Shown: in pieces, positions 9,607-63,212 of the stretch
Position numbering within the stretch: the first letter of the stretch is position 1
Layout of the letters: each line of letters opens with the position of its first letter
Assembly (NCBI GenBank): GCA_963806035.1
Contig: CAWDWO010000039.1
Coordinates: 63,781-127,780, forward strand
Source: Candidatus Krumholzibacteriota bacterium
Lineage (GTDB): Bacteria; Krumholzibacteriota; Krumholzibacteriia; JAJRXK01
Direction: 5' to 3'
Length of the DNA: 64,000 nucleotides
Program-made: the position numbers and the translations under genes
Notes under the pieces: model-generated
Told to the model about the DNA's origin: nothing
Database searches by the model: none
What the model saw: the letters and a program-made list of their open reading frames with translations, nothing else

Positions 9607-9794
9607 CGTAGGGTTTCGGGGCAATCTCGCCGCGATTGGGGCAGGGTAGGGAGTACTTTGCGAAGTGTCAACGTGACGCCTGCCACGCGAGCTGCCGCCC
9701 TGAGGCTTGTGGAGCCCGGGTGGTCCGTCTATGCTGCCCCGGTACAGGCCTTTGCGTTGGCCTCTTTTCGGCGCTATCACGGGGTCCTGCATTC

Positions 9795-14606: not shown

Positions 14607-17402
14607 ATGGCGAGTGCCGAAACTATCACGATCCACGGGGCCCGCCAACACAACCTGCGGAATCTGGATCTCTCCATCCCCAAGGCTCATTTCACCACCA
14701 TCAGCGGGGTCTCCGGCAGCGGCAAATCTTCCTTGGCCTTCGATACTCTCTACGCCGAGGGACAGCGCTGCTACGTGGAGAGTCTCTCCACCTACGCGCG
14801 ACAGTTCCTCGAGAGATTGGAAAAACCCGAGGTCGATTTCATCGACGGAATCCAGCCCGCCATCGCGATCCGGCAGCGCAACACGATTCGCTCCAGCCGC
14901 TCGACGGTGGGAACCTCGACGGAAATTCACGACTACCTGCGCCTCCTCTATGCTCGAGCCGGACGCACCTACTGTCTGGACTGTGGAGTGGAGGTTACAC
15001 CGGATACTCCGGATGGGGCCGTCGTCAAAGCCCGCGAGAAATTCGACGAGGGAGCGCGGATCCACGTCGTCTTTCCCGCCGCGGCGACCGAGACGCTGAG
15101 TTTCCAGGAGCTGGCGAGTCGTCTGGTGGCGCAGGGCTATCTACGCGCTCTGTGCGGCGAGGAAGTTCGATCGCTCGAGGATTCCTGGCGGCGCGAACCG
15201 AAGGTGGGTGAAGAGTTTTACGTACTCGCCGATCGCATGGTCTTCAAACCGGAGAACGAACTGCGTCTGGCCGAATCGGTGGAGGCCGCCCTCAGCGCCG
15301 GTGAAGGACGCGCGGGCATCGTAAAGGAGAACAGCGCGGACATTCTGCCCCTGAGCAAGGTCTTTGCTTGCTCGCACTGTGGCCGCTCCTACGAACCGCC
15401 CCACGCGCAGCTTTTTTCCTTCAATTCTCCCCAGGGGGCATGCCCGGCCTGCAACGGTTTCGGCGAGAGACTCGAATTCGACGAGCGCAGGATCATCCCC
15501 GATCTGGGCCGCAGCCTCGGAGCCGGAGCGGTGAAGCTCTGGGCCAGCGAGACCTTCGCTCACGAGATGAGCGTCATGCTGAAGGCCTGTCGCCGGCGCA
15601 AGATTCCCATCGACGTGCCCTTCGAAAAGCTGAGCGCGAAGCACAAGACATTCATCCTCGAGGCGCGCGAGAAAGACTATGTCGGAGTCATCCCCTGGCT
15701 GAGCGAGATGCGCGAGGCGAGGGTCAAGGAGGGACATCGCTTCTACACTCGCCGCTACATGGGGCGAAGCACCTGCCGCACTTGCCAGGGAACGCGGCTC
15801 AAACCCGAAGCGCGGGCCGTGCGCGTGGGGGGAGTTGGCATCGGTGATTTGTGCGCGATGTCCATCCCCAATGCGAGGAAGTTTCTAAAGGAACTGAAGC
15901 TCGACGAGACACGGCGCGAAATCGTGAGAGACGTGCTACTCGAAATCCTCGAGCGCCTCTCGTTCTTGGAAGCCATTGGTCTGGGTTATCTCGATCTTTC
16001 GCGCGCCAGCCGCACCCTGAGCGGCGGGGAAATGCAGCGAATTCACCTGAGCAACGCGCTCTCCAGCCGCCTGGTGGAAACGCTCTACGTGCTGGACGAG
16101 CCCAGTATCGGCCTGCATCCGGCGGACACCTATCGCCTCATCGAACGCCTGAAAGAGCTGGCGCAACTCGGCAACACGGTCGTCGTGGTCGAACACGATT
16201 TGGAGATCTTGCGTTCCAGCGACAGACTCATCGACCTCGGACCCGGTGCGGGAACGCACGGAGGCCGGGTGCTCTACGAGGGAGTTCCGCCACAGGGGAA
16301 CGATCCGAATCCGGGGGCAAAGGACAGCCTGACTTGCGCCTATCTCTCCGGAGAGCGCGAAGTACCAATGCGCAAGAACCGGCGCGCGGCGGGTCGCAAG
16401 CGGGTCACTCTGGTCAACGCGCGTCTGCACAACCTGAAGGGCATCGACTTCACCTTGCCTCTGGGACTCTTCGTGTGCGTGACCGGCGTGAGCGGTTCGG
16501 GCAAGAGCACCCTGGTGAACGAGCTGCTCTATCCGGCGCTCACCGGACAGATTGCCGGGGGAACGGGCAGGCTGCACGGTTTCGACGCGCTGCACGGCGC
16601 GGAGAACGTGGATCAAGTGGTGATGGTCGATCAGAGTCCGGTGGGACGTAGCGCGCGCAGCAATCCGGGAACCTACCTGCACGTTCTCGGAGATATCCGC
16701 GAGTTACTGGCCTCCACCGCCGAGGCACGAAAACGCGGCTGGACCGCGGGACGTTTCTCCTTCAACGTCGCCGGTGGTCGCTGCCCGGTCTGCCAGGGAA
16801 TGGGCGAGGTGAGAGTGGAGATGCAGTTCATGGCCGACGTGACCGTACCCTGTGAGGAGTGCGGCGGACGGCGCTTCGAACCCTCGACTCTCTTGGTCAA
16901 GTATCGCGGTCGCAACATTTCGGAGATCCTCGATCTCACGGTGGACGAGGCCATCAACTTTTTCGCCGACTCGCCCGCGATAGGTGCCAGACTCTGGCTG
17001 CTCCAGCGCGTGGGACTCGGCTATTTGAAGCTCGGCCAGCCAGCGGGCACCCTCAGCGGAGGCGAGAGTCAACGGCTCAAGATCGCGCGTGAACTGTCCT
17101 ACGGAGGCAAGGATCACACTCTCTATCTGCTCGACGAACCAACCTGCGGACTGCATCCTGAAGACATCAAGCGCCTGGTGACGGTTCTGAACGAACTGGT
17201 GGACGCGGGGAATACCGTGCTCGTCATCGAACACAACCTGGATGTGATCAAGAATGCCGATCACGTGGTCGATCTGGGAATTGGCGGTGGGCCGGCCGGG
17301 GGTAAGATCGTGGTCGCGGGACCTCCGGAGAGCCTCACGGAAAATGCCGAATCCGTCACCGGAAAGCACCTGCGCGAGATGTTGTCCATGCAGAGGAGCT
17401 AG
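14607..17402 (+). CDS. uvrA: excinuclease ABC subunit A (UvrA family)
   Basis: 931 aa. Two Walker A motifs (GVSGSGKSS, GVSGSGKST), two ABC signatures (LSGGEMQR, LSGGESQR), and zinc modules CSHCGRS...CPACNGFG and CPVCQG...CEECGG. Confidence 0.85.
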   Translation: MASAETITIHGARQHNLRNLDLSIPKAHFTTISGVSGSGKSSLAFDTLYAEGQRCYVESLSTYARQFLERLEKPEVDFIDGIQPAIAIRQRNTIRSSRSTVGTSTEIHDYLRLLYARAGRTYCLDCGVEVTPDTPDGAVVKAREKFDEGARIHVVFPAAATETLSFQELASRLVAQGYLRALCGEEVRSLEDSWRREPKVGEEFYVLADRMVFKPENELRLAESVEAALSAGEGRAGIVKENSADILPLSKVFACSHCGRSYEPPHAQLFSFNSPQGACPACNGFGERLEFDERRIIPDLGRSLGAGAVKLWASETFAHEMSVMLKACRRRKIPIDVPFEKLSAKHKTFILEAREKDYVGVIPWLSEMREARVKEGHRFYTRRYMGRSTCRTCQGTRLKPEARAVRVGGVGIGDLCAMSIPNARKFLKELKLDETRREIVRDVLLEILERLSFLEAIGLGYLDLSRASRTLSGGEMQRIHLSNALSSRLVETLYVLDEPSIGLHPADTYRLIERLKELAQLGNTVVVVEHDLEILRSSDRLIDLGPGAGTHGGRVLYEGVPPQGNDPNPGAKDSLTCAYLSGEREVPMRKNRRAAGRKRVTLVNARLHNLKGIDFTLPLGLFVCVTGVSGSGKSTLVNELLYPALTGQIAGGTGRLHGFDALHGAENVDQVVMVDQSPVGRSARSNPGTYLHVLGDIRELLASTAEARKRGWTAGRFSFNVAGGRCPVCQGMGEVRVEMQFMADVTVPCEECGGRRFEPSTLLVKYRGRNISEILDLTVDEAINFFADSPAIGARLWLLQRVGLGYLKLGQPAGTLSGGESQRLKIARELSYGGKDHTLYLLDEPTCGLHPEDIKRLVTVLNELVDAGNTVLVIEHNLDVIKNADHVVDLGIGGGPAGGKIVVAGPPESLTENAESVTGKHLREMLSMQRS

Positions 17403-17405
17403 GGG

Positions 17406-18383
17406 ATGAGAGTCCTGGTCACCGGCGGCGCCGGCTACATCGGAAGCGTGACGGTCCGCCAGCTACTAAAGGACGGTCACGAGGTGACGGTCCTCGACGA
17501 TTTGAGTACGGGGCATCGCGCGGCAATCGAAGCGCGTGCGCGTTTCGTGGAGGGTCGCGTGCAGGACGCTGTCGCCCTCTCGGAGGCTCTGAGGGGCAGC
17601 GAGGCCGTGATCCACTTCGCCTCCTTGAGTTTGGTATCGGAGAGCGTGCGCGCTCCGCGCCGCTATTTTCGTGAGAACCTCTCGGCCGCGCTCGAGCTGC
17701 TGGAGGGAATGGAGCGCGCGAAAGTCCGCCGCCTGGTGTTCTCCAGCAGCGCCGCCGTCTACGGCGAGCCGGAGCTCGAGCTCATCGACGAAGACACACC
17801 GCTGCGGCCGGTGAACCCCTACGGGATGAGCAAACTCATGGTGGAGGAAATCCTCGCCGAGGAGGCCCGGGCCAACGGCCTGTCCGCAATGGCTCTGCGT
17901 TACTTCAATGCTTGCGGCTCGGATGGGGTCCACGGAGAGGACCATGATCCGGAGACCCATCTCATCCCGCGTCTGTGCGCGGCGCTCTTGGAGCGCGGGC
18001 GGGAGTTCGTCATCCACGGACGCGACTTTCCCACCGCGGACGGCACCGCGGTGCGCGACTACGTCCACGTGGTCGATCTGGCACGGGCTCACGTGAGCGC
18101 CCTGGCTGCGCTTCAGGCTCCCGGCTTCGAAGCTCTCAACCTGGGAACCGGCGCGGGAGCGAGCGTGCTCGAAGTGGTGCGCGCCGCGCAGGAGCTGGCG
18201 GGTTCCTCACTCGAGCTTCCCTTCGGCCCCCGGCGGGCGGGCGATCCGGCGCGGCTGGTGGCGGGGAACGAACGGGCGCGGCGCCGGCTCGCTTGGCGGC
18301 CCGAGCGCTCCGGGCTGAAGACCATCCTGCAGGACGCCTATCGCTGGCACCAGGAGCACCCCCAGGGCTACTCGGACGCTTGA
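17406..18383 (+). CDS. galE: UDP-glucose 4-epimerase
   Basis: MRVLVTGGAGYIGS Rossmann motif, catalytic YGMSK, 325 aa. Confidence 0.85.
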   Translation: MRVLVTGGAGYIGSVTVRQLLKDGHEVTVLDDLSTGHRAAIEARARFVEGRVQDAVALSEALRGSEAVIHFASLSLVSESVRAPRRYFRENLSAALELLEGMERAKVRRLVFSSSAAVYGEPELELIDEDTPLRPVNPYGMSKLMVEEILAEEARANGLSAMALRYFNACGSDGVHGEDHDPETHLIPRLCAALLERGREFVIHGRDFPTADGTAVRDYVHVVDLARAHVSALAALQAPGFEALNLGTGAGASVLEVVRAAQELAGSSLELPFGPRRAGDPARLVAGNERARRRLAWRPERSGLKTILQDAYRWHQEHPQGYSDA

Positions 18384-18596
18384 GCCACCGTCGCCCCAGC
18401 GGCTGATCTGATCCCGGCAGCGGCGAAAAGCTGGGCAGGGGAGATGAGGGGTCGTCGCAGGGAAATTCCCGGTTTTCCGCCGCTGAATGAGCCTATTCGA
18501 GGCATTTTCCGCCGTCTGTGCGCCTTTGCGGAGACGCAGGGTCTCTCTGGCACTCCGGTTGCCCTTCGCGGGAGCATCTGGAGGGGAGACCACGCC

Positions 18597-20393
18597 ATGA
18601 AATCCGAAGAATCCCGGTCCGCCGAGTCGTCTCGTCCCACGCTCGAAGCGGCAGAACTCCTGCAGCGCATCCCGCGCCTCTTGCGTTTTCGTTTGGCCGG
18701 TCGCGCCGACCGACTGCTTCTGCGCCTGGCCGAGAAAGTGGGCTTTGCCGGGGGCGCAAGTCTATATATCGAACTCGAGAGCGGCCCAAACTCCCCTCTG
18801 ATCGTGGCTGAACGCGGAATTGCGGCTGAGCGCTGGACGCGCCAGCTGCAGGCGGAGCGTATCGGGCTGCTTTCGGTCGCACGAATCCCGGTTGCGCGCC
18901 GCCTTTCGGCGAATTTCGAACCGGTGGCCGCGCGGCTCCTGCAGGGGCTCAATGCGCAGCGGCTCACCGTCATTCCGCTGGGATGTCAGGGAAGAGCCTG
19001 GCGGCTGCTCCTGCTCGCTGAGGGACCGCGCTTCAATCTGGAAACTCTGGCCGGAATGCGCGACTTGGCGCGCACCGTACTCGACGCCGCCCGGCGCCAG
19101 GAAGAGAGCGGGCCCGCTCGTGTCGAGCGTAGCACGCATTCCCGACCCGGCAGCCGTTCGCGCACGCGCGTAGTGCGCGGGGCGGATGTGTTCCGCTTGG
19201 GCGAGGGCCAACTCTCTCGCGCTCGACGTCTGGTGGACCATCACAACGATGCGGTGGGAAACCTCAGCCATGACTTGAAGAACCCGCTCGCCGCCATCTC
19301 GACTTCGCTCCAGGTTCTTGCGAGTGGCCGCGCCGGAGTGCTGGAACCCCATCAGCTTCGCCTGCTGGGACTGGCCCGCAGAAATACCGAACGACTGGAG
19401 AGAATGGTCGATAGTTTCGCCAAGGAGGCGCAGCGGCAGGAGGGGGAGACGGTTCTGGATTGGCGCGAGCTCGATGCGAGCGAGCTCGTGAACCAGGCGA
19501 TGGCTTCATCGGGCGCGATGGCGCTGACACAGGACCGTCAACTCGCCTGGGTCGTCGATCACGGCAGCACGGTTTACGGCGACCCCGATCGCATCCTGCG
19601 CATCCTGGATAACTTGGTGGGAAATGCGCTGAAATTTTCGGGACACGAAGGAAGCGTGCTGGTCAGCGCACGCAAGGACATGGTGCGCAAAGAGGACGAA
19701 CTCGCTCGCGCCGCTGCCAGTCTGGGACACGCGCTTCGGGGTCTGTCGATCGCGGTGGAGGACGACGGACCGGGGATGAGCGAAGAGGTCTGCGCGCGCG
19801 CATTCGAGCGTTTCTGGCAGGAGGATGAGGAACGCGGCCGGGGCCGTGGTTCCGGTCTCGGTCTTTCGATCGTTCAATCTCTGGTCCTCGCGCTGCACGG
19901 AACGGTCAGCTTGACCAGCGAGCCACAGAAGGGTACCTGCGCGCGAGTTTGGCTCCCCCGCGACGAAGCTTGCGGTAGGCTCTGCGCGCAGCTGCAATCG
20001 CTCATGCGGGAACTGGATCGTCTGCGAGTCAGATGCCAGTCCGCGCGCCTTCTGCTTCTGGAGCTCTCACAATCCACCGACGAGCTCATGGCGGGCTTCG
20101 AAAATCTCCATCAGCAGCTGGTGGAGGAGGGCAGGAATCGCTGGACGGCGTACCGAGTTCACAGCTCCGCCCTCGTGCTCCTCTTGGATGAGGATGAACC
20201 CTATCCCACGTCTCTCTCAGTCATGACGGCGGAGAGCAAACCGGGGATGTCGGCTGTCCTGCGTCAGGGAACCGCCTGCTTCCCCCGTGATGGAGAGAGT
20301 TTGGATGTTCTGCTCGAACAAGCCCGGAACACGATGAGCGACCAGTGGTTGGTTGCGGCAGTCGGGGCCGGGCAACGGGAGAAGGCACGATGA
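18597..20393 (+). CDS. cytoplasmic sensor histidine kinase (GAF-like N-terminus, HisKA, HATPase_c, extra C-terminal domain)
   Basis: H-box SHDLKNPLAAI, N-box DNLVGNALKFS, G1 DDGPGM, G2 GSGLGLSIV. No clear TM segment. ATG 18597 has a GGAGGGGAG SD. ATG 18444 is an alternative start. Confidence 0.8.
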   Translation: MKSEESRSAESSRPTLEAAELLQRIPRLLRFRLAGRADRLLLRLAEKVGFAGGASLYIELESGPNSPLIVAERGIAAERWTRQLQAERIGLLSVARIPVARRLSANFEPVAARLLQGLNAQRLTVIPLGCQGRAWRLLLLAEGPRFNLETLAGMRDLARTVLDAARRQEESGPARVERSTHSRPGSRSRTRVVRGADVFRLGEGQLSRARRLVDHHNDAVGNLSHDLKNPLAAISTSLQVLASGRAGVLEPHQLRLLGLARRNTERLERMVDSFAKEAQRQEGETVLDWRELDASELVNQAMASSGAMALTQDRQLAWVVDHGSTVYGDPDRILRILDNLVGNALKFSGHEGSVLVSARKDMVRKEDELARAAASLGHALRGLSIAVEDDGPGMSEEVCARAFERFWQEDEERGRGRGSGLGLSIVQSLVLALHGTVSLTSEPQKGTCARVWLPRDEACGRLCAQLQSLMRELDRLRVRCQSARLLLLELSQSTDELMAGFENLHQQLVEEGRNRWTAYRVHSSALVLLLDEDEPYPTSLSVMTAESKPGMSAVLRQGTACFPRDGESLDVLLEQARNTMSDQWLVAAVGAGQREKAR

Positions 20394-20791
20394 GCGAAGC
20401 TCGTATACTACTTGTCGACGATGAACGAGATATCGCCGAAGCCCTCAGCTTTGCGCTGACGAGCGATGGATACGAAGTGGAAATTGCCACTGACGGCGAG
20501 GTGGGCTATCGGTCCGCGCTTCAAAATCCGCCCGATCTTCTCATATTGGACGTGATGCTGCCCGGAATCAACGGCTACGAGATCAGCCGCCAACTGAAGG
20601 ACTGGATGAAAGGGGCGCCAGCCGGCAAGAGCTTCCCAATTCTGCTCATCACCGCGCGGCGGATCCACACCCCGCAGCGTGAGGAATTCCTTTCGGTGTG
20701 GTCGAGGGCCGATGCGGTTCTGTACAAGCCTTTCGAACTGAGCGATCTCGCGAAGTGCGTGGAGGAGCTCCTGGTGGCTGCCATGACTTGA
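20390..20791 (+). CDS. single-domain (CheY-like) response regulator
   Basis: RILLVDDERD and DLLILDVMLPGINGYE motifs, 133 aa, no output domain. Its ATG overlaps the kinase stop (ATGA). Confidence 0.85.
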   Translation: MSEARILLVDDERDIAEALSFALTSDGYEVEIATDGEVGYRSALQNPPDLLILDVMLPGINGYEISRQLKDWMKGAPAGKSFPILLITARRIHTPQREEFLSVWSRADAVLYKPFELSDLAKCVEELLVAAMT

Positions 20792-20805
20792 GCTTGCGGC
20801 CGGCC

Positions 20806-20834
20806 TTGACACCCTCGGTGGCTTCTACGATATT
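20806..20834 (+). promoter_or_regulatory. sigma-70-type promoter TTGACA-N17-GATATT upstream of tRNA-Phe
   Basis: TTGACA at 20806-20811 and GATATT at 20829-20834, about 60 nt before the tRNA. Confidence 0.5.
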
Positions 20835-20897
20835 CTCCCTCCGCTCGATTTCGAGTCTATCGGCGCCTGATGGCGCCCGCGCCGAATCTCGCGCGGT

Positions 20898-20973
<76 letters not shown>

Positions 20974-21110
20974 TTCTCACCCCCGGCACGAAAACCCACG
21001 ACGCTCAGTCCATCCGCCTCATTCGAGCCCTGGGCCAGTCTGCGGCTTGCAAGAATCTTCATTCTGCGTCAAGCTCCTTCGCGCGCTGAATTCCCCAGCC
21101 CCTCCCATGG

Positions 21111-22121
21111 ATGTGGACCACGATGCGGCTGAGAAGGCTCATCCTGAAGTCGATAGAGTTCTTTGGTCTGCACCCGTATCTGCGGCGGCGACGGCATGGC
21201 GCCCTCGTCCTGGCCTACCATGGCGTGGAGGAGCAGATTCTCGATCCGCGCATACAGACCGTTCACGTTTCACTGCTTCGCTTCGAGCAGCAGATGAAAT
21301 ACCTGAAAGAGAACTTCGAGGTCATCAGTGTCGATGAGCTCGAGCAGCGACTCGCGGCCGGAAGCGGACTGGACGGCAATCAGGCCGTCATCACTCTGGA
21401 TGACGGCTACCGCAACAACCTGCAGATCGCTGCGCCCTTGCTCGACTCCATGGATCTTCCCTTCTCGGTATTCGTCTGCTCGCAAAACGTCAGCGATGGA
21501 CACCGGCTGCCAACCTATCTCGCGCGCAGTGCTCTCTATCTCACCGAGAGACCCTCTTGCCGCATACAGGCCCTCAACCAAGAGCTCCCCCTGCACAGTC
21601 TGGAAGAGAAGGACTTCAGCGCGCGCTATCTGGTCGCCACTCTCAAATCTTCGGCTCAGCCGGTCGTGGAGAGCATGCTCTCTGACTTGGAAACTCTGCT
21701 GCCCCCCGAACGTAGAGAGGAAATCGACGAGCGCTTTGCTTCTGATGCGTTGATGAGCTGGGATGAAGTAAGAACGCTGCACCAGAATGGCGTGATCATC
21801 GCCTCGCACGGCAAGCAGCACTGCATCCTGCACGATGAGCAGGAGCTCGACTTGGTAAAGACCGAAGTGCGGGAAAGCAAGGAGACGCTGGAGCGGGAAC
21901 TGGGTTCGTGCAAGTACTTCGCGTACCCCAATGGTGGCCCCGCGGACATCTCGAAGGCCTCCGTTTTGGAAGTGGAGAGGGCCGGCTATGCCATGGGCTT
22001 CACCTGTATTTTCGGAGAGACGAGGCTGGACAGTCCGCGGGCGTTCTTGCCGCGCATGGACGCCGACGTCGGATTCGACACCTTCAAGTTCTTTTTGAAC
22101 AGTGCTTACCGTCCCCGATGA
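21111..22121 (+). CDS. polysaccharide deacetylase (NodB-homology, CE4-like)
   Basis: LAYHGV, ITLDDGYRNN (TFDDG-type motif), SHGKQH, and FAYPNG motifs. About 60-aa insertion between motifs. ATG 21111 or 21123. Confidence 0.75.
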   Translation: MWTTMRLRRLILKSIEFFGLHPYLRRRRHGALVLAYHGVEEQILDPRIQTVHVSLLRFEQQMKYLKENFEVISVDELEQRLAAGSGLDGNQAVITLDDGYRNNLQIAAPLLDSMDLPFSVFVCSQNVSDGHRLPTYLARSALYLTERPSCRIQALNQELPLHSLEEKDFSARYLVATLKSSAQPVVESMLSDLETLLPPERREEIDERFASDALMSWDEVRTLHQNGVIIASHGKQHCILHDEQELDLVKTEVRESKETLERELGSCKYFAYPNGGPADISKASVLEVERAGYAMGFTCIFGETRLDSPRAFLPRMDADVGFDTFKFFLNSAYRPR

Positions 22122-23521: not shown

Positions 23522-23581
23522 CCGCCCTCCGTGTTCTCTCTACTCAGGGCCCGAATCAGCGGGAAACGAAGAGGTCGAACC

Positions 23582-24001
23582 GTGGAACACCAGACTGGTC
23601 CAAGAAGAATCGCCCACCGGAAACGTTGGAGCAATCAAAGTGGCTTCACGGTCGTGGAGTTGATGGCGGCGCTGCTGCTTTTCAGCATCGGGCTCGTCGC
23701 TTTGGCTCGAGTGCTTCCCCAAGGAATGGAAGTTCGAGACCGGGGCCGGCGAATGACGGTAGCCATGCAGCTGGCGAGGGAGCAAATCGAGACTCTTCGG
23801 AGCCTCCCTTTCACCGATCCCGATCTCGCCAACGGCCAGCACGTGGACAACGAAGTATTGAGGAACGGATCGTACCGCCGGCGATGGACGGTACAGGATG
23901 ACACGCCCCTTCCGAACATGATGCGCATCGAAGTTCGAGTCGCATTCACTACGTCCGAGGCAGATAGCGAAGCAGTGATCGTCACACAGCGAACCCGATA
24001 G
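23582..24001 (+). CDS. PilV/GspI-like minor pseudopilin (prepilin-type N-terminal cleavage/methylation domain)
   Basis: Leader ...KRWSNQSG|FTVVELMAALLLFSIGLVAL, with G-1, F+1, E+5. About 140 aa. The GTG 23582 start (GAAGAGG SD) is preferred because ATG 23531 would lie at the predicted sigma-54 transcription start. Confidence 0.75.
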   Translation: MEHQTGPRRIAHRKRWSNQSGFTVVELMAALLLFSIGLVALARVLPQGMEVRDRGRRMTVAMQLAREQIETLRSLPFTDPDLANGQHVDNEVLRNGSYRRRWTVQDDTPLPNMMRIEVRVAFTTSEADSEAVIVTQRTR

Positions 24002-26986
24002 GTGGTGGCACCGATGAAGCACAGCGGTGGTACGCAACGCGAAGCACGCTCTTGGTTCGAGCGGAACTTCGCCAAATCGTCCCAAGATGGATTCACGCTC
24101 ATAGAATTGGCTGTCACCATGGTGGCATTCGCCGTGATCATGATCGTGGCGTTTGGCGTCATGGGGAAGCTCAACCAGGCCGGTATGGGCAACGAGGTCT
24201 TTGCCCGCACCCAGGCGGCAGCTCGCGCGGCGAGTGACGAGGTCGAGAAAGACCTGCGCGCGGCCGGCGTGGACGTCGATTTCAGTCGCGGTCAAGAGCG
24301 ATTCGTCTATGCCGACGCCTATCAAATCGCATTCAACGCCGATCTGAGCCCCACAGTGGATCCCAACGGTACGGCGGCGCCGGCGGCGCTTCACGTGGGA
24401 AACATTCCCGCGCAGCTCACGCCTCTGTTCACGCCGACCACGACCTACAATACGGGCGCGGAGACCATCGTCTACACCCTCGATTCGACCGCTGACGGCG
24501 TGATCGACGGGGCGGACGAAGTTGACGATGGCGAGGAGAATACCCCGAACCCGCACGACATGATGCTCTATCGACGGGTCTTCGGCTGGGACGGCAATGC
24601 CAACACCATGCAGGAACGCCAAGTCGCGCTCGTGCGTGGACCCGATGCCAACTCCCAAGGCGAGTTCCCCCAGCCCCTGTTCGCCTATTTGATCGATTCG
24701 GACGACGATCGCAGCACGCCACCCGTTCTGCACGGTGATGCCGACGGCGATGGCACGCTCAGCAATGCAGAGATTGCCGCGCTCACGCCGCTCACTCAGC
24801 CCGAGCGTGCTCGCCTCGAGCGCATCGTTTTGACGGTGACGGGCGAATCGGAGCGGACCGACGCTCACACCCAGTCCAACGATGGGTACAATAGGGTGGT
24901 CTTGCGCAGTGAAGTGATGGTGCGCCATACACCTCGCACTAGCGGATTGGTGTACGGAACCGTCTTCCAGGATACCGACGGCAACAGAGTCCAGGATGCG
25001 GGAGAGGGTGGAATCGGCGGAGTCACGGTGCGCTCCAGCGTGGGAACCATCGCACGCACCGACCTCAGCGGGGCCTATCGCCTCGTTCTCACCCCGGGCT
25101 TCCAGACGATCACCGAGGTCGATCCCGCGGGATATATCTCAAGCACTCCGAACACCATCAACATCGACGTCATTCCTGGTTCCTATTCACGCCTGGACTT
25201 CGGCGACCGTTCACCGAGCGGCTCGGCTTCGGTCAAGGGGATCGTGTTCGATGACGTGAATCAGAACTCGGTGATGGACGGAGACGAACTGGGTATTCCC
25301 GGCGTGACCGTGTATTCCGATGGCGGCGAAACGACGGTAACCGATGCCAACGGTTCCTACACCCTGACCGTGCCGGTGGGAAACCGGACGATCACGGAGA
25401 CCGACCTTCAAGGATACACTTCGACGACCACGAACACGGTCGATATCGTGCTGAGCACCGACGGACAGGTCGAGGTTTTGAACTTCGGAGACTATCTCCT
25501 GAAGGACTCGGGCACGATCGAAGGCTACGTCTACAACGACGAGAACAACAACCAGGTTCGCGATGGCTTCGAGACCGGTGTCAGCGGCGCCATGATCTAC
25601 GCGGCGGGGGACAGCGTTCAGAGCGACGTCAGCGGGTATTTCTCGCTCACCGTTCCCTCGGGCACCTACGACGTCACGGAGGTTGATCCACCCGGATACA
25701 CTTCGACGACCGCGAACACGCTGCGGGGAGTACAGGTAGATCCCAACGTCACCATTCAGATCTACTTCGGAGACATGGTCCAGGAGGACGTCAACTTCGA
25801 CATCATCACCCTGGCCGATACCGAACGCGCGCTGTCCCTCACCAGCGGTGACGTGGGAGAGGACAACAAGGGCGACGACGATCTCGTGTTGGGCACGCGC
25901 TCGAGCAGTGGTACCAACAACTTGATTTTGTGGGACAACGATCGACGCAATGGCAATACGCCGAACGGGGCCATCTTCAGTTCGGTGCCCACCGCGACGC
26001 GCAATGCGGGCTCGGACGTGATGGCAATGAGGATGATCCAGGATACGGGGAACCCCTATCTCATCCTGGGTCTCAACGGCGCCGGTTCGCCCGATATCAG
26101 CGTTTGGAGCTTCAAAAACGGCATGCCGGGGAACTCGCCCGATCAATGGTACGCGACCAACGGCGGGGAGTCGGTCCTCGACCTCCAGACCATCAACTAC
26201 TACGGTGGCAGCTCTCTCGACCTGGTGGTCGGGGTGAAGAACGCCACCATGTCGGGATCCGTGGAACTGTGGACGGGTTTGGGCGGCGGTCAGTTCTCAC
26301 GCATTCCCAACGGGATCATCACCGTGGGCGCCTCTCCGCTGGGCCTGGTGCTGGGTGAAGCGCAGGCGGCCGTGCTGCAGGACATCAACAACGATGGTCG
26401 GGCTGACCTCATCGTGGGCGCGCGTCAGACCACGACCACCAGCTCCGTAAACGTCTACCTGCGCTTTCCCGACAACAACAGCGGGATCTACTTCGAACCC
26501 TATCAGGCCTTCCCGGTCAAGGGGCTCATAACCGACATCATCGTCAAGGACATGATCGACGACGATCAGGGCCGTCCCGACATCGTCGTGGCGACCGCGA
26601 CGACCGAGACGACCGGTGGCGTGTACCTGTGGACGCAACACGAAGACGGATACTTCGGATTGCCCAACGGCACCGGCCGCAGCTTTGACGACTACATGAC
26701 CACCGATGGCGCTCCGATCGTGATGGAGTCGCTCAAGCTGGACAACGACGTGTTCCCCGACCTCTTGATCGGCACGAGAACTTCCAACGTCTATCAGGGC
26801 TACGTGTTGATGGCGCTTGGCTTTGGTTACTTGCCCAGTGCGGCCACGCACCTCACCGAAAATCCGATCGGTGCGGTGGTGACCATGACCACCGCCGATT
26901 TCAACAAAGACAACGCCATGGATTTCGCCGTGGGGACGCAGAATGCGGCCACACAGGGCCAAGTCGTCATCTTCTATCGCCAGTAG
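24002..26986 (+). CDS. giant pseudopilin-adhesin: prepilin N-terminus + PilW/GspJ-like head + 3 SdrD-B/Cna-B-like repeats + FG-GAP/VCBS beta-propeller
   Basis: Leader ...KSSQDG|FTLIELAVTMVAFAVIMIVAF. EF-hand loop DADGDGTLSNAE. Three ~95-aa repeats (G.V[FY].D.[DN].N...D..E.G[IV].G..V... [TS]D..G.Y.L.[VL].G......E.D..GY.S[ST]T.N). Six to seven blades ending D...D[LIF][VLA][VI]G ... [LIV][WY]. Confidence 0.8.
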   Translation: MVAPMKHSGGTQREARSWFERNFAKSSQDGFTLIELAVTMVAFAVIMIVAFGVMGKLNQAGMGNEVFARTQAAARAASDEVEKDLRAAGVDVDFSRGQERFVYADAYQIAFNADLSPTVDPNGTAAPAALHVGNIPAQLTPLFTPTTTYNTGAETIVYTLDSTADGVIDGADEVDDGEENTPNPHDMMLYRRVFGWDGNANTMQERQVALVRGPDANSQGEFPQPLFAYLIDSDDDRSTPPVLHGDADGDGTLSNAEIAALTPLTQPERARLERIVLTVTGESERTDAHTQSNDGYNRVVLRSEVMVRHTPRTSGLVYGTVFQDTDGNRVQDAGEGGIGGVTVRSSVGTIARTDLSGAYRLVLTPGFQTITEVDPAGYISSTPNTINIDVIPGSYSRLDFGDRSPSGSASVKGIVFDDVNQNSVMDGDELGIPGVTVYSDGGETTVTDANGSYTLTVPVGNRTITETDLQGYTSTTTNTVDIVLSTDGQVEVLNFGDYLLKDSGTIEGYVYNDENNNQVRDGFETGVSGAMIYAAGDSVQSDVSGYFSLTVPSGTYDVTEVDPPGYTSTTANTLRGVQVDPNVTIQIYFGDMVQEDVNFDIITLADTERALSLTSGDVGEDNKGDDDLVLGTRSSSGTNNLILWDNDRRNGNTPNGAIFSSVPTATRNAGSDVMAMRMIQDTGNPYLILGLNGAGSPDISVWSFKNGMPGNSPDQWYATNGGESVLDLQTINYYGGSSLDLVVGVKNATMSGSVELWTGLGGGQFSRIPNGIITVGASPLGLVLGEAQAAVLQDINNDGRADLIVGARQTTTTSSVNVYLRFPDNNSGIYFEPYQAFPVKGLITDIIVKDMIDDDQGRPDIVVATATTETTGGVYLWTQHEDGYFGLPNGTGRSFDDYMTTDGAPIVMESLKLDNDVFPDLLIGTRTSNVYQGYVLMALGFGYLPSAATHLTENPIGAVVTMTTADFNKDNAMDFAVGTQNAATQGQVVIFYRQ
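24944..25775 (+). repeat. three tandem ~95-codon SdrD-B/Cna-B-like domain repeats inside the giant pseudopilin gene
   Basis: Units begin GLVYGTVFQDTDGN, ASVKGIVFDDVNQN and GTIEGYVYNDENNN, and each ends ...[LI][DNY]FGD. The repeats are diverged at DNA level. Confidence 0.7.
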
Positions 26987-26996
26987 GGAGAGTCCA

Positions 26997-28307
26997 ATGG
27001 ACACGAAGAGGAAGGCTAATTCCCCGAGTAAAGCTTCGACAGGAGCGTTCTTGCCGCGCATCGTTCGCAACGAGGACGGGATGGCGCTCGCCATCACGAT
27101 CATCCTGCTCTTGAGTCTGGCGGCAATGGCTCTGACCGCCACCCTGGTGGGGAGCACGGACCTCAAGGTGGCCGGAAATCAGCGCATGAATTCGGCCGCC
27201 CTGGATGTCGCCGAGGCGGGCGTGGCGGAGGCTCTCAACCGCATGAGCCTCACCCCGGGCACCACCGTGCCGGTGGGAGGCAACGCCGTCGACGCTTCCA
27301 TTGCGGATCCCACTTTCCCGCCCAATCCGAATTGGAAGGCGCACATCTATCTGACCCCGATCGGGGCTGCGCCGGCGGCTCCTGCCGGAGAGTTCAGCAC
27401 CGGTACCGTGCAGACGGCCGGCAACTATCTGCAGTATTCGGACCCCGCGGACGTCAACGAAGCGATTCTCATCGAGCACAAAACGCGCGACTTCAACGGC
27501 GACGGAGTCCCCGAAGTCGTTCTCTACGACCCCTCTCTGGTTCCTCCGGAGAATCCGAATTCGGGATCGCCGGTGGAAGTGGTGACGGCGACCGGTCACC
27601 AGGGAACAGCCAAACGCACGGTGCAGGTGGAAGCGATTCGTTTCCCCATTCATCCCAACGTCACCGCCGCGCTCAGCGCGGACGGAACGGTGGACCTGCG
27701 CGGTAACGTCACCGTGTGTGGTCACAACCACCGCATCGACACGCCGGTGGGCCGCCAGCTACCGCTCTGTTCCCCCGCCTGGGACGAAACCGTGGGACAT
27801 CTGCCTGCCGTCATGACGACGGGCTACTCCGTTGGAACGCGAGGTTCGACGGACCTGTTGGGGAGTCCCGCGGTAACCGACACCTCCTCCACGAACCATT
27901 TCTACAGCCTTTCGGAGGCTCTGGGCGTCACGCAGTCCGAGCTGAACGACATTCTCTCCAGTCCCGACCAGACAAGCGACAGCGACTCGGGTCCCTACGA
28001 CGGGATCACCTACATCCAGGGTGACGCAGGCTTCAACGGGATCAACGGGCAGGGACTTCTGTATGTGACGGGGGACCTCACCCTCGCCGGTAATTTCTCC
28101 TGGGTCGGCCTGGTCTACGTGGAGGGGGAGCTGCGCAATACGGGAAACACCTGGATCCTGGGCGGGGTCATGGCGCGTGGTGACCTCCACGTCGCCGTGG
28201 ACTTCGGTGCCGGAACGCCAGTGATTCTCTACAGCCAGGAAGCACTCGAGCAGGCACTGACGCGTTCCATGCGCTATGTGACCTTGGGGTGGAAGGAGAT
28301 GGACTAG
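26997..28307 (+). CDS. PilX/GspK-like minor pseudopilin (PilX N-terminal-type anchor, enlarged 436 aa)
   Basis: ...RNEDGMALAITIILLLSLAAMALTATLVGSTDLKVAGNQRMNSAALDVAEAGVAEAL matches the PilX_N/GspK N-terminal pattern (hydrophobic helix then AGNQ...A...AEAG). ATG is preceded by a GGGAGAG SD. Confidence 0.65.
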   Translation: MDTKRKANSPSKASTGAFLPRIVRNEDGMALAITIILLLSLAAMALTATLVGSTDLKVAGNQRMNSAALDVAEAGVAEALNRMSLTPGTTVPVGGNAVDASIADPTFPPNPNWKAHIYLTPIGAAPAAPAGEFSTGTVQTAGNYLQYSDPADVNEAILIEHKTRDFNGDGVPEVVLYDPSLVPPENPNSGSPVEVVTATGHQGTAKRTVQVEAIRFPIHPNVTAALSADGTVDLRGNVTVCGHNHRIDTPVGRQLPLCSPAWDETVGHLPAVMTTGYSVGTRGSTDLLGSPAVTDTSSTNHFYSLSEALGVTQSELNDILSSPDQTSDSDSGPYDGITYIQGDAGFNGINGQGLLYVTGDLTLAGNFSWVGLVYVEGELRNTGNTWILGGVMARGDLHVAVDFGAGTPVILYSQEALEQALTRSMRYVTLGWKEMD

Positions 28308-28813
28308 TGCGTAGCTCACGGCAGACAGCTCGTATCCAGCGCCACGGGGCGGCCGGGTTCACTTTACTGGAGATGATGGTGGCCATCGTCGTGATGGGCG
28401 TCGCCATGGCCTTCACGGCGCCCAACATCATCCAGAGCGCGCGCACGCACAAGCTGCGCAGCGCGGCCGGTGAAGTGCAAACCGCGTTGGCCAGGGCGCG
28501 TTCCACCGCCGTCACCAAGAAGGCCACGGTGCGCCTGGATTTCTTGGGGGGCGCGAATCCGCTCTACGTCGTGCGGGAAGATCTCGACAACGACGGTGTC
28601 TACGATCGTTGGACTTCGTGGTCCAGAATTCCCAGTGGCGTGCGGATGACGAACCTGAATTTCGGCGGCAACAACTTCGTGAGCTTCACCTCCAGCGGAG
28701 TGCCCTCCGCGGGGGGCACGATCACCCTGCAGGTCGACAACGGTCAGCAGCGGGTCATTCGCCTCGCTCCGGGAAGCGGAGCCGCCACGGTCTCCACCCC
28801 GGCCAATTCCTGA
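28307..28813 (+). CDS. FimT/GspH-family minor pseudopilin
   Basis: Leader VRSSRQTARIQRHGAAG|FTLLEMMVAIVVMGVAMAF, then the GspH-type segment IIQSARTHKLRSAAGEVQTALARARSTAV. GTG 28307 has a GGAAGGAG SD 8 nt upstream and overlaps the previous stop by 1 nt. Confidence 0.75.
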   Translation: MRSSRQTARIQRHGAAGFTLLEMMVAIVVMGVAMAFTAPNIIQSARTHKLRSAAGEVQTALARARSTAVTKKATVRLDFLGGANPLYVVREDLDNDGVYDRWTSWSRIPSGVRMTNLNFGGNNFVSFTSSGVPSAGGTITLQVDNGQQRVIRLAPGSGAATVSTPANS

Positions 28814-28914: not shown

Positions 28915-29409
28915 TCATTGCGCGCTTTCCGCATCCTGCGGCGGGTGCTTTCGCTCGCTGCGTTGGCGGTCCACCCAGCGCTTGGTGGCTTTTGCCAGCG
29001 CATGCAGGCCCTCCAGGGCTGGCTCCCGCTCCTCGCTGGGAAGCAGAGTGAGGATCTCGCGACACGAGGCGCGGATGCGGCTCTCGAGCTGCAAGAACAG
29101 AGTCTCTCCGGCCGGGGTGAGTTGGACTTCGACGCGACGCCGGTCCTGCTTGGCGGCCTGGCGTGTCGCTAAGTTCTTTTTTTCCAGGCCGTCAACCACG
29201 CGGGTCAGGGTGCTCTGGGTCAGCCGCAGCTCCTCCGCCAAGACCTTCATTCCGGCCGAGCCCAGCTCCCACAGGGTCTGCAGGAGGTTCCATTGGCTCA
29301 AGCTGAGCCCGGCCTCGGCGCAGAAGAGCCGATCGCGCGCGGCGCCTCCCTGGGAGAGAGTTCGTCCGTCCTGAAGAAGACGACCACTGAGTCGAAAACT
29401 AGAAGCCAT
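28915..29409 (-). CDS. MarR-family transcriptional regulator
   Basis: 164 aa. Winged-helix core LSLSQWNLLQTLWELGSAGMKVLAEELRLTQSTLTRVVDGLEKKNLATRQAAKQDRRRVEVQLTPAG. ATG 29409 has a GAAGGAG SD. Confidence 0.85.
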   Translation of the reverse strand: MASSFRLSGRLLQDGRTLSQGGAARDRLFCAEAGLSLSQWNLLQTLWELGSAGMKVLAEELRLTQSTLTRVVDGLEKKNLATRQAAKQDRRRVEVQLTPAGETLFLQLESRIRASCREILTLLPSEEREPALEGLHALAKATKRWVDRQRSERKHPPQDAESAQ

Positions 29410-33557: not shown

Positions 33558-34523
33558 ATGACAGATACCCAAGTCAGCGTCAGCTCCGCCGCGACCGCTC
33601 CCGAAGTGGTGCTCATCCTCAATCCTACCGCCGGGAAGGGACGGGCGGGACGCGAGCTCGTTCATCTTCGTAGCCATTTCACCGCTCGCGGCATCAAGGC
33701 GGACATCTTTCTGACCCGCGGCGAGGGTGACGGCACTCGCATCATGCAGGAACTGGAACCCGCCCCGGGAACCATCGTGATCGCGGCGGGCGGAGACGGG
33801 ACCGTGCATGAAATCGGCGGCGCTCTCATCGACAGGGAGGAACTCAGACTCGCGGTGATCCCCATGGGATCGGGCAACGACTACGCCCGCCTGATGGGCA
33901 TGCCGAACGATCCGGTGCGCTGTCTCGATCTCATCCTCGAAGGAAGCGATCAGCACTGGGACGTCGGCCTGGTGGGAGAGGAGTTCTTCCTGAACTCGGT
34001 GGGCTTCGTTCTCTCCTCCGCGGTGAGCTGGCACAGCCGTCAGACCGGACCTCTCACCGGGCTTGCGCGCTACGGCATGGCCGTGTTGCGAGCCCTGAAC
34101 GATCACCGGCCGGTTCGCATGGGCTTCGATGGATTAGAGGCCTCGGGAGATCACTGGGTAAGCCTGATGGAAGTGGGAATCGGAAACTGCGCGGGAGGGG
34201 GATATCGGCTCACGCCGCGCGCCAATCCCACCGACGGTCTCTTGGATGTCTGTCTGGTGAGCGCTCTGGCGCGCTGGAGAATTCCCCTGCTCATGCCAAG
34301 GGCGCGCGCGGGACGCCATCTCGATCATCCAAAGGTCATCTACGAACAGGTGGCGGGTTTCCGCCTGCGTCTGGATGCGAGGGCACTGATCCACCTGGAT
34401 GGGGAACTCAAGCGCCTGGAGAAGGGGGAATACAGTGTGCGCGTGAAGAGCAAGTCTCTGCGCGTGCGCATCCCCAAAGATCGTGCCCTGGAACTGGGGA
34501 GGAAGAGGGAGGGGACGCCGTGA
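33558..34523 (+). CDS. diacylglycerol/lipid kinase family protein (YegS-like)
   Basis: LILNPTAGKG, AAGGDGTVHE, PMGSGNDYAR. ATG 33558 was chosen so the CDS does not overlap the tRNA-Sec gene. Confidence 0.8.
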   Translation: MTDTQVSVSSAATAPEVVLILNPTAGKGRAGRELVHLRSHFTARGIKADIFLTRGEGDGTRIMQELEPAPGTIVIAAGGDGTVHEIGGALIDREELRLAVIPMGSGNDYARLMGMPNDPVRCLDLILEGSDQHWDVGLVGEEFFLNSVGFVLSSAVSWHSRQTGPLTGLARYGMAVLRALNDHRPVRMGFDGLEASGDHWVSLMEVGIGNCAGGGYRLTPRANPTDGLLDVCLVSALARWRIPLLMPRARAGRHLDHPKVIYEQVAGFRLRLDARALIHLDGELKRLEKGEYSVRVKSKSLRVRIPKDRALELGRKREGTP

Positions 34524-35161
34524 GAGCCCAGGCCAAAAGGGCGGCGGTCCTGATGCTGGCGATCGAGTGTCTCTTGCTTCCCTCGCTGGCAGACGCCAGC
34601 CAGATGGAGGGGGCGACGCCAGCCGTCGCGCCCGCGGATTCCACTCGAGTTCCACCGCCAGCCGCTCCACTCGATCTGGGGAACGGCCCGGTCTATCCGC
34701 CAGGAGGCGTTGCAGGCCCGCAGAACCTGCAGCGGTTTCAACCCCGCTCCACCACCGCGGCCGTGTTGATGTCGGTTCCCTTGCCGGGGTGGGGCCAGTT
34801 CTACGGAGACGCTCCGTTTTGGGGCGTGGTGGCTTTCGGGGCTCAGATGTGGTTCTACGGGAACATCGCCATGCAGCTGCGGAGACAGGAGCGCCAGCGC
34901 GTGGCAAGGGACCAAGCTCCGCTGGGAAGTGCGGAGCGCGACATCCGCGACGCCCTCGTGACCGAGCACTCCGAGCGTGCCCGAGATTTCATCTGGTGGG
35001 CCGCGGGATCGCTCCTCTTGGTCTCCCTGGATGCCTACGTCAGCGTTCAATTGGTCGATTTCGATTCACCCATTCCCCCGACTCCCGATCTCGAGCGTGG
35101 GCTCGGCGCGGAGCTCCCTCGTGGCGGTGTGGTCGCCGTGACCTTACAATTGCCCTTCTAA
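34520..35161 (+). CDS. hypothetical secreted/membrane protein
   Basis: Signal-like N-terminus MRAQAKRAAVLMLAIECLLLPSLADA, Pro-rich linker, two hydrophobic segments around PLPGWGQFYGD. GTG overlaps the upstream stop (GTGA). Confidence 0.45.
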   Translation: MRAQAKRAAVLMLAIECLLLPSLADASQMEGATPAVAPADSTRVPPPAAPLDLGNGPVYPPGGVAGPQNLQRFQPRSTTAAVLMSVPLPGWGQFYGDAPFWGVVAFGAQMWFYGNIAMQLRRQERQRVARDQAPLGSAERDIRDALVTEHSERARDFIWWAAGSLLLVSLDAYVSVQLVDFDSPIPPTPDLERGLGAELPRGGVVAVTLQLPF

Positions 35162-35197
35162 GAGGGCCGTTCGCACTCCGCTCACATCCCGAAGTCC

Positions 35198-36997
35198 ATG
35201 CAACAGAATCAGATTCGAAATTTCTGCATCATCGCGCACATCGATCACGGCAAATCCACTCTCGCCGATCGAATTCTCGAACTCACGCATTCCGTCGCGG
35301 CAAAGGACATGCGCGCGCAGCTCTTGGACTCCATGGACCTCGAGCAGGAGCGCGGGATCACCATCAAGAGCCATCCCGTGCGCATGGAATATCGCTCGCG
35401 CGACGGGCAGGACGTCGTCTTCCATCTGATCGATACCCCCGGCCACGTGGATTTTCACCACGAGGTCAGTCGCAGTCTCGCGGCGTGCGAGGGGTGTCTT
35501 CTGGTCGTCGACGCGGTGCAGGGAGTGCAGGCGCAGACGATCAACAACTTGTACCTGGCTCTCGAACACGATCTCGCCATCATCCCCGTGATCAACAAGA
35601 TCGACTTACCCGCCGCCCGTCCCGATGAGATCAAGGAGCAAATCGTCGATCTGATCGGGTGTGAAGAAGAGGAAATCGTCCTGGTGAGCGCCAAGAGCGG
35701 TGAGGGCGTCCCGGACCTACTCGATCGCATCATCACCACCATTCCTCCTCCCCAAGGAGTCTTGGAGGCGCCTTTGCGCGCGCTGGTTTTCGACAGTCAG
35801 TTCGACGCCTACCGGGGGACCATCGCCTACGTTCGCGTGGTCGACGGCAGCGTAACCAAAGGTGACATGATCAGGATGATGGGAGGGGGCCAGGAGCACG
35901 ATGTGATGGAGACCGGCTATTTCAAGCTCCAGCAGATTCCCACCGATAAACTGCAGGCGGGTATGGTGGGGTATCTCGCGACGGGAGCCAAGAGCGTCTC
36001 CGCGGTGCGCATGGGCGACACCATCACTCACAGGGACAGGCCGGCGAAGGAACCAGTGTTGGGCTACGTGGAAGCCAGGCCCATGGTCTTCAGCGGCTTT
36101 TATCCCGTGGTCAGCGACGACTACGATCTCCTGAAGGACTCCCTGGAGAAGCTGCAGCTCAACGACGCGGCCCTGACCTTCGAGCCGGAGACCAGTGCCG
36201 CGCTGGGCTTCGGCTTTCGCTGCGGCTTCCTGGGACTCTTACACATGGAAATCGTGCAGGAGCGGCTGGAGCGGGAGTACAATCTGGATCTCATCGCGAC
36301 CCTGCCCAACGTGGAGTACAAGTGCCGGCTGAAGACCGGTGAGGAACTCACCATCGAGAATCCTAGTATCATGCCCGAGCCCGGCGCTCTGGAGGAGATG
36401 AGTGAGCCCTACGTGAAGGCCTCGATCATCATGCCCAAGGAATACGTGGGTGGAGTGATGAAGCTCACCCAGGACCGTCGCGGCGAGCAGGAATCGATGC
36501 AGTACCTCAGCGGAGAGCGGGTCGAGCTCCTCTACAAGGTGCCCTTGGCCGAGTTGGTCGTCGATTTCTACGACAAACTGAAGAGCGTCACGCGCGGCTA
36601 CGCCAGCCTTGACTACGAATTTTGGGGGTATAAGGTCAGCGATCTGGTGAAACTGGACATCCTGCTCAACGGTGAGCCGGTGGACGCACTCAGCGTGATC
36701 GTGCATCGCTCGAAAGCCTACGAGTTCGGAAGATCGCTCTGCGTCAAGTTGAAGGAGCTGATTCCGCGCCAACTCTTCGCGGTTGCGGTTCAGGCTGCCC
36801 TGGGCAGCCGGGTCATCGCACGGACGACGGTGAAGGCGCTGCGCAAGAACGTCACCGCCAAGTGTTACGGCGGAGACATCTCGCGAAAGCGCAAGCTGCT
36901 GGAGAAACAGAAGGAAGGGAAAAAGCGCATGAAGCAGGTGGGCAGCGTGGAGATTCCTCAGGAGGCCTTTTTGGCAGTGCTCAAGGTGGAACGGTGA
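35198..36997 (+). CDS. lepA: translation elongation factor 4
   Basis: [35 protein letters not shown], conserved LepA C-terminal domain, 599 aa. Confidence 0.95.
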
Positions 36998-63188: not shown

Positions 63189-63212
63189 TTTCCCTGGGGT
63201 CGGGGGGATGCG

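Follow-up and report, generated by a model that had tools for sequence, protein, structure and literature searches.

The subject of this analysis is a gene in a stretch of 64,000 nucleotides (the 64-kb window: contig CAWDWO010000039.1, positions 63,781 to 127,780) from a Candidatus Krumholzibacteriota bacterium. The gene lies at 24002–26986 on the forward strand and encodes, in one chain, a type IV pilin N-terminus, three β-sandwich repeats and a β-propeller. It is here annotated as a modular minor pilin and is referred to as the fusion gene. It is the second gene of a tight four-gene cassette, in which it occupies the J (PilW/GspJ) position.

The open reading frame (ORF) is uninterrupted and comprises 994 codons when counted from a GTG, as reported in an initial annotation made from the letters of the window alone. 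The frame is therefore as described, but the product is probably slightly shorter, having 990 residues if translation begins, as its sequence context suggests, at ATG 24014 (M5). This start is preferred because the sequence AGGTGG at 24000–24005 lies 8 nt 5′ of the ATG, and because a homologue that is 94% identical (P0001) also has 990 residues and begins MKHS, as the protein would from ATG 24014. The upstream gene ends with a stop codon at 23999–24001. Long antisense ORFs overlap the fusion gene at 23540–24928, 25211–26146 and 26297–27166, all on the reverse strand; their counterparts in relatives are only shadows of the conserved sense genes.

The protein opens with a class III signal, SSQDG/FTLIELAVTMVAFAVIMIVAF, in which the slash marks the predicted prepilin peptidase site and G30, F31 and E35 occupy positions −1, +1 and +5. 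Both relevant profiles confirm the motif above their curated cut-offs: N_methyl (Pfam PF07963) reaches 24.5 bits (cut-off 21.2) and TIGR02532 (NCBIfam) 21.4 bits (cut-off 16.3). Among 44 aligned family members, E35 is invariant, conservation of G30 and of F31 is 90% or more, and N_methyl is found in 40. The leader peptide up to Gly30 (24002–24091), delimited from the motif and from the Pfam and NCBIfam matches, is poorly conserved, with a mean identity of 21%, and residues 1–32 are disordered in the structural model. This model was generated by AlphaFold2 from the 44-sequence family alignment, and has a mean predicted local distance difference test score (pLDDT) of 84.6 over the full length.

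The pilin module follows at 24092–24937, and consists of a hydrophobic α1 helix (residues 31–86) and a β-sheet head (residues 87–312). AlphaFold2 predicts a single helix of 54 residues (33–86) and then strands from 101 to 306, with good confidence; when the head is modelled alone its pLDDT is 82.8 and its predicted template modelling score 0.75. The predicted arrangement, an extended α1 helix followed by a β-sheet head, is that of type IV pilins. A profile search against the sequences of the PDB matched only the N-terminal helices of pilins, the best being Geopilin (E = 3.5e-4), followed by MshA and PilA.

The head contains two loops that resemble EF-hands. The loop DADGDGTLSNAE (residues 246–257, 24737–24772) had been pointed out in the initial annotation, and by its sequence it does read as a canonical 12-residue EF-hand loop, with G245, D246 and E257 invariant. 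The other, DSTADGVIDGAD (residues 161–172, 24482–24517), is absent from that annotation, and in it D161, D165, G166 and D172 are invariant in all 44 sequences. A weak NCBIfam match to the XopAW calcium-binding family spans residues 154–282.

The next segment, at 24938–25795 (residues 313–598), is made up of three β-sandwich repeats of the SdrD-B-like/CarboxypepD_reg type and is predicted to form a stalk. SdrD_B (PF17210) matches it with 58.7 bits over three stretches, and is present in all 44 members. Their first residues, G319, G413 and G508, are 94–95 positions apart, and so the three repeats of about 95 residues with an SdrD-B/Cna-B signature that had been read from the sequence are indeed there. 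AlphaFold2 places three β-sandwiches at about 315–598, and in a Foldseek search these match TIE of B. anthracis (6fwv, E = 6.6e-15) and the A2-A3-B1-B2 region of S. aureus SdrD (E = 1.6e-13). Each sandwich carries the conserved acidic motif G.V..D.n.nG..D.gE.Gi, which in SdrD B domains binds calcium.

The C-terminal part of the protein, at 25796–26983 (residues 599–994), is an FG-GAP/VCBS-type β-propeller. FG-GAP scores 34.0 bits (cut-off 22.1) and FG-GAP_3 33.3 bits (cut-off 26.9), and they are found in 41 and in all 44 of the members, respectively. Six to seven repeats had been proposed. Seven conserved blade motifs, D..gD...D[ILV]..G, are present at about residues 617, 680, 740, 794, 850, 914 and 966, and the model has some 29 strands across 599–993 with a pLDDT of about 90, which would correspond to seven four-stranded blades; the C-terminal strand (985–993) is modelled inside blade 7. 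Judged by sequence, the cation loop is canonical in blade 4 (DINNDGRAD), and degenerate in the other blades, which keep an acidic D..D...D pattern. The structural matches of the propeller include the EPTP domain of LGI1 (9kzc, with a template modelling (TM) score of 0.76 on the target) and CRTAC1 (9etn). Hidden Markov model profiles and the AlphaFold2 model thus agree that a single chain contains a pilin module with a class III signal, a stalk of three domains and an FG-GAP propeller, as had been suggested.

A protein search found about 43 full-length homologues, all metagenomic, which are 977–998 residues long and 34–94% identical to the window protein. A scan of genomes, using one genome per GTDB species, gave 71 loci, of which about 50 are full-length and come mostly from metagenome-assembled genomes of Candidatus Krumholzibacteriota/Krumholzibacteriia, although a few carry the label Latescibacterota, Edwardsbacteria or UBP1. 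Of these loci, L004 is the closest, at 82% identity. The whole architecture is kept in all 44 aligned homologues, down to 29–34% identity. The mean pairwise identity is similar in all the modules (0.36–0.44 across the 44 members), and selection therefore appears to act on the whole chain.

These results also bear on whether the ORF could be an assembly chimera of a pilin gene and an unrelated adhesin gene, a concern raised in the initial annotation. The end-to-end architecture, at 977–998 residues and 34–94% identity, recurs in independent assemblies from many studies and in about 50 species-level genomes, and the composition of the DNA is even over 24–27 kb. A chimera is accordingly ruled out, and we give it practically no credence.

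The remaining genes of the cassette are all pilin-like. Directly upstream, at 23531–24001 on the forward strand, is the first gene of the cassette, a 156-residue ORF encoding a small minor pilin in the PilV/GspI position (G38/FTVVE43; N_methyl, 29.3 bits); nearly all related loci have a homologue of it directly upstream of the fusion gene. Downstream, and overlapping the 3′ end of the fusion gene, is a 454-residue ORF (26943–28307, forward strand) in the PilX/GspK position. This gene follows the fusion gene immediately in 38 loci, and its product has 430–454 residues in the family. Its N-terminus reads G/MALAITIILL, without Glu5, as in PilX/GspK, and it has a weak match to PilX_N (19.3 bits). 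The protein is more than twice the usual size of PilX, and PilX_N is its sole Pfam match. Glycine-rich repeated strands in its C-terminal part (ITYIQGDAGFNGINGQGLLYVTGDLTLAGNFSWVGLVYVEGEL) suggest, at the level of sequence, a β-helix-like domain. The last gene in the window's cassette, at 28289–28813 on the forward strand, encodes a GspH/FimU-like minor pilin (G/FTLLE; GspH, 39 bits; N_methyl, 30.9 bits). A scan of the cassette for promoters and terminators gave counts no better than those of shuffled sequences, its sole item being a terminator-like hairpin at 29148–29174.

When the four cassette proteins were searched by tblastn against all the fetched loci, essentially all of those whose flanks were long enough proved to contain the same four genes. 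Most often these are arranged as H, V-like, fusion, X-like, so that the H gene comes first in most relatives; in the window's own subclade it is shifted to the end of the cassette. The minor-pilin operon context of the gene is thus conserved in about 50 species-level genomes. The four genes are the canonical priming or tip set (FimU-PilV-PilW-PilX, PilH-I-J-K or GspH-I-J-K), with the fusion gene in the J slot. One locus (L029, 6077–7763, reverse strand) has, beside the main cassette, another PilV-like and another PilX-like gene as an inverted pair that does not enclose a J-type gene, and at another (L020, 13040–15595) the PilX-like gene is present as a tandem duplicate 3′ of the fusion gene.

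Other genes that might belong to the system were sought around the cassette. In a clustering of neighbouring ORFs of at least 250 residues from 50 loci, the only recurrent neighbours were the fusion gene and the PilX-like gene, the other clusters being their antisense shadow ORFs, and no conserved large partner gene was found near the cassette. A PilY1-type gene is absent from the cassette and from the 10 kb around it in about 50 genomes, whole genomes not having been searched. No PilY1 domain occurs in the gene lists of three loci, and none was found among the larger ORFs of the 64-kb window, all of which were scanned; apart from the cassette, these gave only housekeeping and LPS genes, a two-component system and a MarR regulator. 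Within this range, the arrangement without a PilY1-type partner that the initial annotation had proposed is supported. The PilY1 propeller itself (PF05567/IPR008707) was not detected in the fusion protein or in the 44 members.

The head is not confined to this architecture. A profile of residues 1–318 of the window protein, searched against 1.84 billion cluster representatives, matched 743 clusters when the threshold was E ≤ 1e-10, and 92 when it was E ≤ 1e-30. Among the best 150 matches listed, the head is N-terminal in nearly all, and many of the proteins are 800–2200 residues long. N_methyl was found in 35 of 38 long examples, and their C-terminal modules include SdrD_B (12), Big_1 (4), FG-GAP (4), Invasin_D3 (3), Big_2 (3), BNR/sortilin (1) and fn3 (1). 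Further head-bearing relatives with other modules are present among the matches of the protein search (P0051–P0078). Big_1 occurs together with Invasin_D3, some of the long head-bearing proteins have no known C-terminal domain, and at one locus (L072) the head-bearing version reaches 1917 residues. In Moduliflexus the head occurs alone, in proteins of 313–334 residues. In Acidobacteriota it is joined to a propeller of the BNR/Sortilin/Ycf48 type, giving proteins of 1015–1091 residues, and the gene is followed by one for a PilX_N protein of 743–757 residues. Such fusions, with PSII_BNR or Sortilin-Vps10 matches, are located at 9938–13030 in L060, 9821–13096 in L062 and 9971–13018 in L070, and from their sequences this looks like a parallel solution, in another phylum, to placing a propeller on a minor pilin.

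On the basis of these observations, we think it fairly probable that the protein of 990 (or 994) residues is a modular type IV minor pilin, displayed on the pilus tip as an adhesin stiffened by calcium. We propose this because the prepilin motif scores above curated cut-offs and has an invariant Glu5; because the model comprises a long helix, a head, sandwiches and a propeller, of which the stalk and the propeller are supported by Foldseek; and because about 50 species-level genomes share the H/I/fusion/K cassette, whose K-like protein has PilX_N and lacks Glu5 in the manner of PilX/GspK. The similar conservation of all the modules and the LPS genes in the window, which mark the host as a diderm, also speak for it. 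There are precedents for such an arrangement, since PilB and PilC of S. sanguinis are modular pilins that present adhesive modules on type IV pili (PMC8179133, PMC9934059), and the pilus is capped by four minor pilins assembled in a complex (bioRxiv 10.64898/2026.09.18.752573).

The protein would be inserted in the inner membrane as a prepilin and, judging from the motif, cut by prepilin peptidase after Gly30. Synteny and the literature suggest that its α1 helix and head would then join the I-, K- and H-like minor pilins in a priming complex, in which the head would hold the J position beneath the apical K subunit, and which would finally sit on the tip of a type IV filament, a type IVa pilus being the likeliest kind. 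By the model and by comparison with the biology of SdrD, the three sandwiches would bind calcium and form a rigid stalk of about 10 nm, which could carry the propeller past the bulky 454-residue K subunit. The propeller may be the ligand-binding adhesin module, a suggestion that draws on the adhesin character of FG-GAP propellers and on the modules carried by the relatives. The invariant EF-hand-like loops probably stabilise the head or make assembly dependent on calcium.

Several points weigh against this proposal. Neither PilW (PF16074) nor T2SSJ (PF11612) matches the window protein at E ≤ 1, and neither matches any of the 44 members at E ≤ 0.01. The AlphaFold2 model of the head alone has no significant neighbour in the PDB by Foldseek; its top neighbour is TTHA1219 of Thermus, at a non-significant E = 0.14, with a probability of 0.16 and a TM score of 0.15–0.23. 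TTHA1219 is described by its authors as an XcpW/GspJ-like minor pilin (PMC5131608). As NCBIfam recognises only the N-terminal motif, the PilW/GspJ-like head of the initial annotation was not confirmed by Pfam, NCBIfam or Foldseek, and it is gene order, the fusion gene standing between I-type and K-type genes in essentially all loci with enough flank, that makes a J-type head a reasonable reading rather than a demonstrated one. No pilus machinery (PilB/C/M–Q/T, PilD or a major pilin) is encoded in the 64-kb window, so that the surroundings of the cassette do not indicate the type of filament. Finally, a folded module of about 70 kDa would have to pass the secretin, which is assumed here by analogy with PilY1.

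The lack of pilus-specific machinery in the window would also suit a cassette that encodes the GspH-I-J-K pseudopilins of a type II secretion system (T2SS), or the corresponding subunits of another non-pilus type IV filament, in which case the stalk and propeller would remain in the periplasm or in the vestibule of the secretin, where they would bind cargo or polymers of the envelope instead of serving as an adhesin outside the cell. The H-I-J-K order of most relatives is the T2SS order, the cassette contains a Pfam GspH domain, and the nearest structural neighbour of the head, although non-significant, is the one described as GspJ-like. We nevertheless consider this alternative quite unlikely. 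The four genes occur alone, without gspG or gspC-F/L/M, and a free-standing layout of this kind is usual for the minor-pilin operons of type IVa pili, unlike T2SS operons. The K-like protein matches PilX_N and not T2SSK, and SdrD_B and FG-GAP, like the invasin D3, Big_1 and fn3 modules of the relatives, are typical of surface adhesins. To our knowledge there is no precedent for an extra module of nearly 700 residues on a pseudopilus confined to the periplasm, which again counts against it. With no filament machinery seen nearby, one might go further and regard the class III signal as a membrane anchor or export signal only, belonging to an envelope protein that does not become part of any filament; some substrates of prepilin peptidase are indeed not filament subunits. 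However, the strict synteny with three pilin-like genes, which together make up the canonical four-member priming set, the invariance of Glu5, which is required for contacts between subunits, and the conservation of the long α1 helix all render this very improbable.

The absence of an adjacent PilY1 can be understood in more than one way. The K subunit may still be the docking site of a PilY1/PilC protein whose gene lies at another place in the genome, in which case the stalk and propeller would form an additional tip adhesin. PilY1 docks on PilK and not on J (bioRxiv 10.64898/2026.09.18.752573), and a module borne by J would be compatible with it; the search for PilY1 covered ±10 kb on either side of the cassette and a single window of 64 kb; and genomes often have several minor-pilin clusters, as in M. 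xanthus (PMC7541494). Set against this, in well-studied operons pilY1 comes directly after pilX, and that slot is empty in all the loci examined, while the K-like protein, at more than twice the usual PilX size, may be self-stabilised. An additional adhesin of this kind is thus possible, if somewhat doubtful. A more sweeping reading is that PilY1 is absent from Krumholzibacteriota and, in parallel, from Acidobacteriota, that the J-type pilin has taken over the whole of its role, both the adhesin function and the calcium-dependent stabilisation of the priming complex, and that a shared EF-hand head, acting as a general carrier of adhesins across phyla, has been grafted independently with two unrelated kinds of propeller, FG-GAP and BNR/sortilin. 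In this full form we offer it tentatively and think it rather unlikely.

For comparison with described proteins, FG-GAP corresponds to IPR013517 (mapping confirmed), and IPR033764 we take to be the SdrD B-like domain. Modular pilins were defined by Raynaud et al. in 2021 (PNAS, PMC8179133), who showed that PilB of S. sanguinis is a tip adhesin, as proteins that have the N-terminal IPR012902 motif and at least one extra domain that is not pilus-specific. The fusion protein, with N_methyl, three SdrD_B domains and FG-GAP, falls within this definition. The InterPro survey in that work identified 1,219 such proteins, with 264 architectures, in monoderms and diderms, and its Dataset S1 lists IPR012902-IPR033764-IPR013517 in three proteins and IPR012902-IPR033764-IPR033764-IPR033764-IPR013517 in one (PMC8179133). 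The initial annotation did not recognise the architecture as a described family. This holds only in part, since modular pilins are described and the domain order was tabulated in 2021, but the architecture has neither a name nor an experimental characterisation. The same dataset contains one protein in which the pilin motif is fused to a PilY1-type propeller (IPR012902-IPR008707-IPR022346), and another in which IPR012902 is combined with five IPR002860 (BNR) repeats (PMC8179133).

The host of the fusion gene can be assigned from its neighbours. The reverse strand of the window carries, at 7242–9792, genes for the lipopolysaccharide (LPS) core that encode a Kdo transferase and a heptosyltransferase of family GT9, and the host is therefore a diderm with LPS. 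Like other modular pilins, the fusion protein has an N-terminal pilin module onto which C-terminal modules are grafted, predicted to be exposed at the tip. S. sanguinis is a monoderm, and its pilins are bimodular and of about 50 kDa, with a vWA module in PilB and a lectin module in PilC; the protein described here differs in coming from an LPS diderm, in the nearly 700 residues added as a stalk and a propeller, and in occupying the J slot of an H-I-J-K cassette. With PilY1/PilC it shares a large size, a presumed association with the tip, a β-propeller, one or more calcium-binding EF-hand-like sites and a place in a minor-pilin operon, and some PilY1 proteins have N-terminal FG-GAP repeats (Dataset S2, PMC8179133). 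PilC/PilY1 is however not a pilin, and docks non-covalently on PilK by a 12-residue C-terminal plug (bioRxiv 10.64898/2026.09.18.752573), whereas here an FG-GAP propeller, instead of the IPR008707/PF05567 propeller of PilY1, is covalently part of a protein with a pilin N-terminus.

PilW, GspJ, XcpW and TTHA1219 resemble the fusion protein in gene position, between I-like and K-like genes, and in having a long α1 helix with a head of about 280 residues, the size of a two-sheet head. They differ from it in that the fusion protein has two EF-hand-like loops, a C-terminal extension of nearly 700 residues and no match to the family profiles. ComZ of Thermus and CofB of enterotoxigenic E. coli are likewise minor pilins to which extra β-rich domains give a tip function (PMC8179133). 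In ComZ this is a β-solenoid inserted in the pilin fold, which binds DNA, and CofB is a trimeric tip adaptor of a type IVb pilus; unlike the fusion protein, neither has SdrD-B or FG-GAP modules. The stalk matches in structure the B repeats of S. aureus SdrD and TIE, and the propeller matches the integrin-α and CRTAC1 FG-GAP families, but SdrD, integrin-α and CRTAC1 are either sortase-anchored or eukaryotic membrane or secreted proteins, and none is anchored by a pilin. A search of the literature on pili of Krumholzibacteriota found nothing relevant.

In the current model, the tip adhesin of diderm type IVa pili is PilY1/PilC, carried on PilK, and modular pilins serve in monoderms (bioRxiv 10.64898/2026.09.18.752573). 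A diderm in which the J member of a complete H-I-J-K cassette is a modular pilin, and in which PilY1 is not encoded alongside, departs from this model in a way worth noting. It does not amount to a new principle, but adds breadth to the known one of modular pilins. What is apparently undescribed is the cassette context in an LPS diderm, together with the use of the head as a carrier of other modules. The cassette is a case provided by nature in which to ask if plug-docking can be replaced by a covalent link, and the head, found in 743 clusters, could be used to search uncultured phyla for tip adhesins.

Elsewhere in the window there are genes for, among others, UvrA, an epimerase, a polysaccharide deacetylase, an ATP-grasp protein, a MarR regulator, PGM, GlmS, LepA, hrcA-grpE-dnaK-dnaJ, DnaG, RpoD, RecJ, RelA and S2. 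About 3 kb upstream of the cassette there is a histidine kinase gene (18444–20393) with an overlapping response regulator gene (20345–20791). This pair recalls the arrangement in Pseudomonas, where FimS/AlgR lies upstream of fimU-pilVWXY1E; it is not conserved in the related loci L001 or L002. An otherwise unannotated ORF of 582 residues at 11932–13680 has a match to thrombospondin type 3 repeats, which bind calcium. Three long ORFs, at 2996–4762 (forward strand, 588 residues), 34483–35628 (forward, 381 residues) and 62550–63830 (reverse, 426 residues), have no Pfam match at E ≤ 0.01, and some of them may be shadow ORFs of a sequence with 62% GC. In L001, which is 47% identical, the genes 3′ of the cassette include one for an 891-residue protein resembling multihaem cytochromes, with a C-terminal FlgD_ig/CHU_C domain (type IX secretion), at 14843–17518, and one for a separate SdrD_B-repeat protein of 1010 residues, at 18720–21752.

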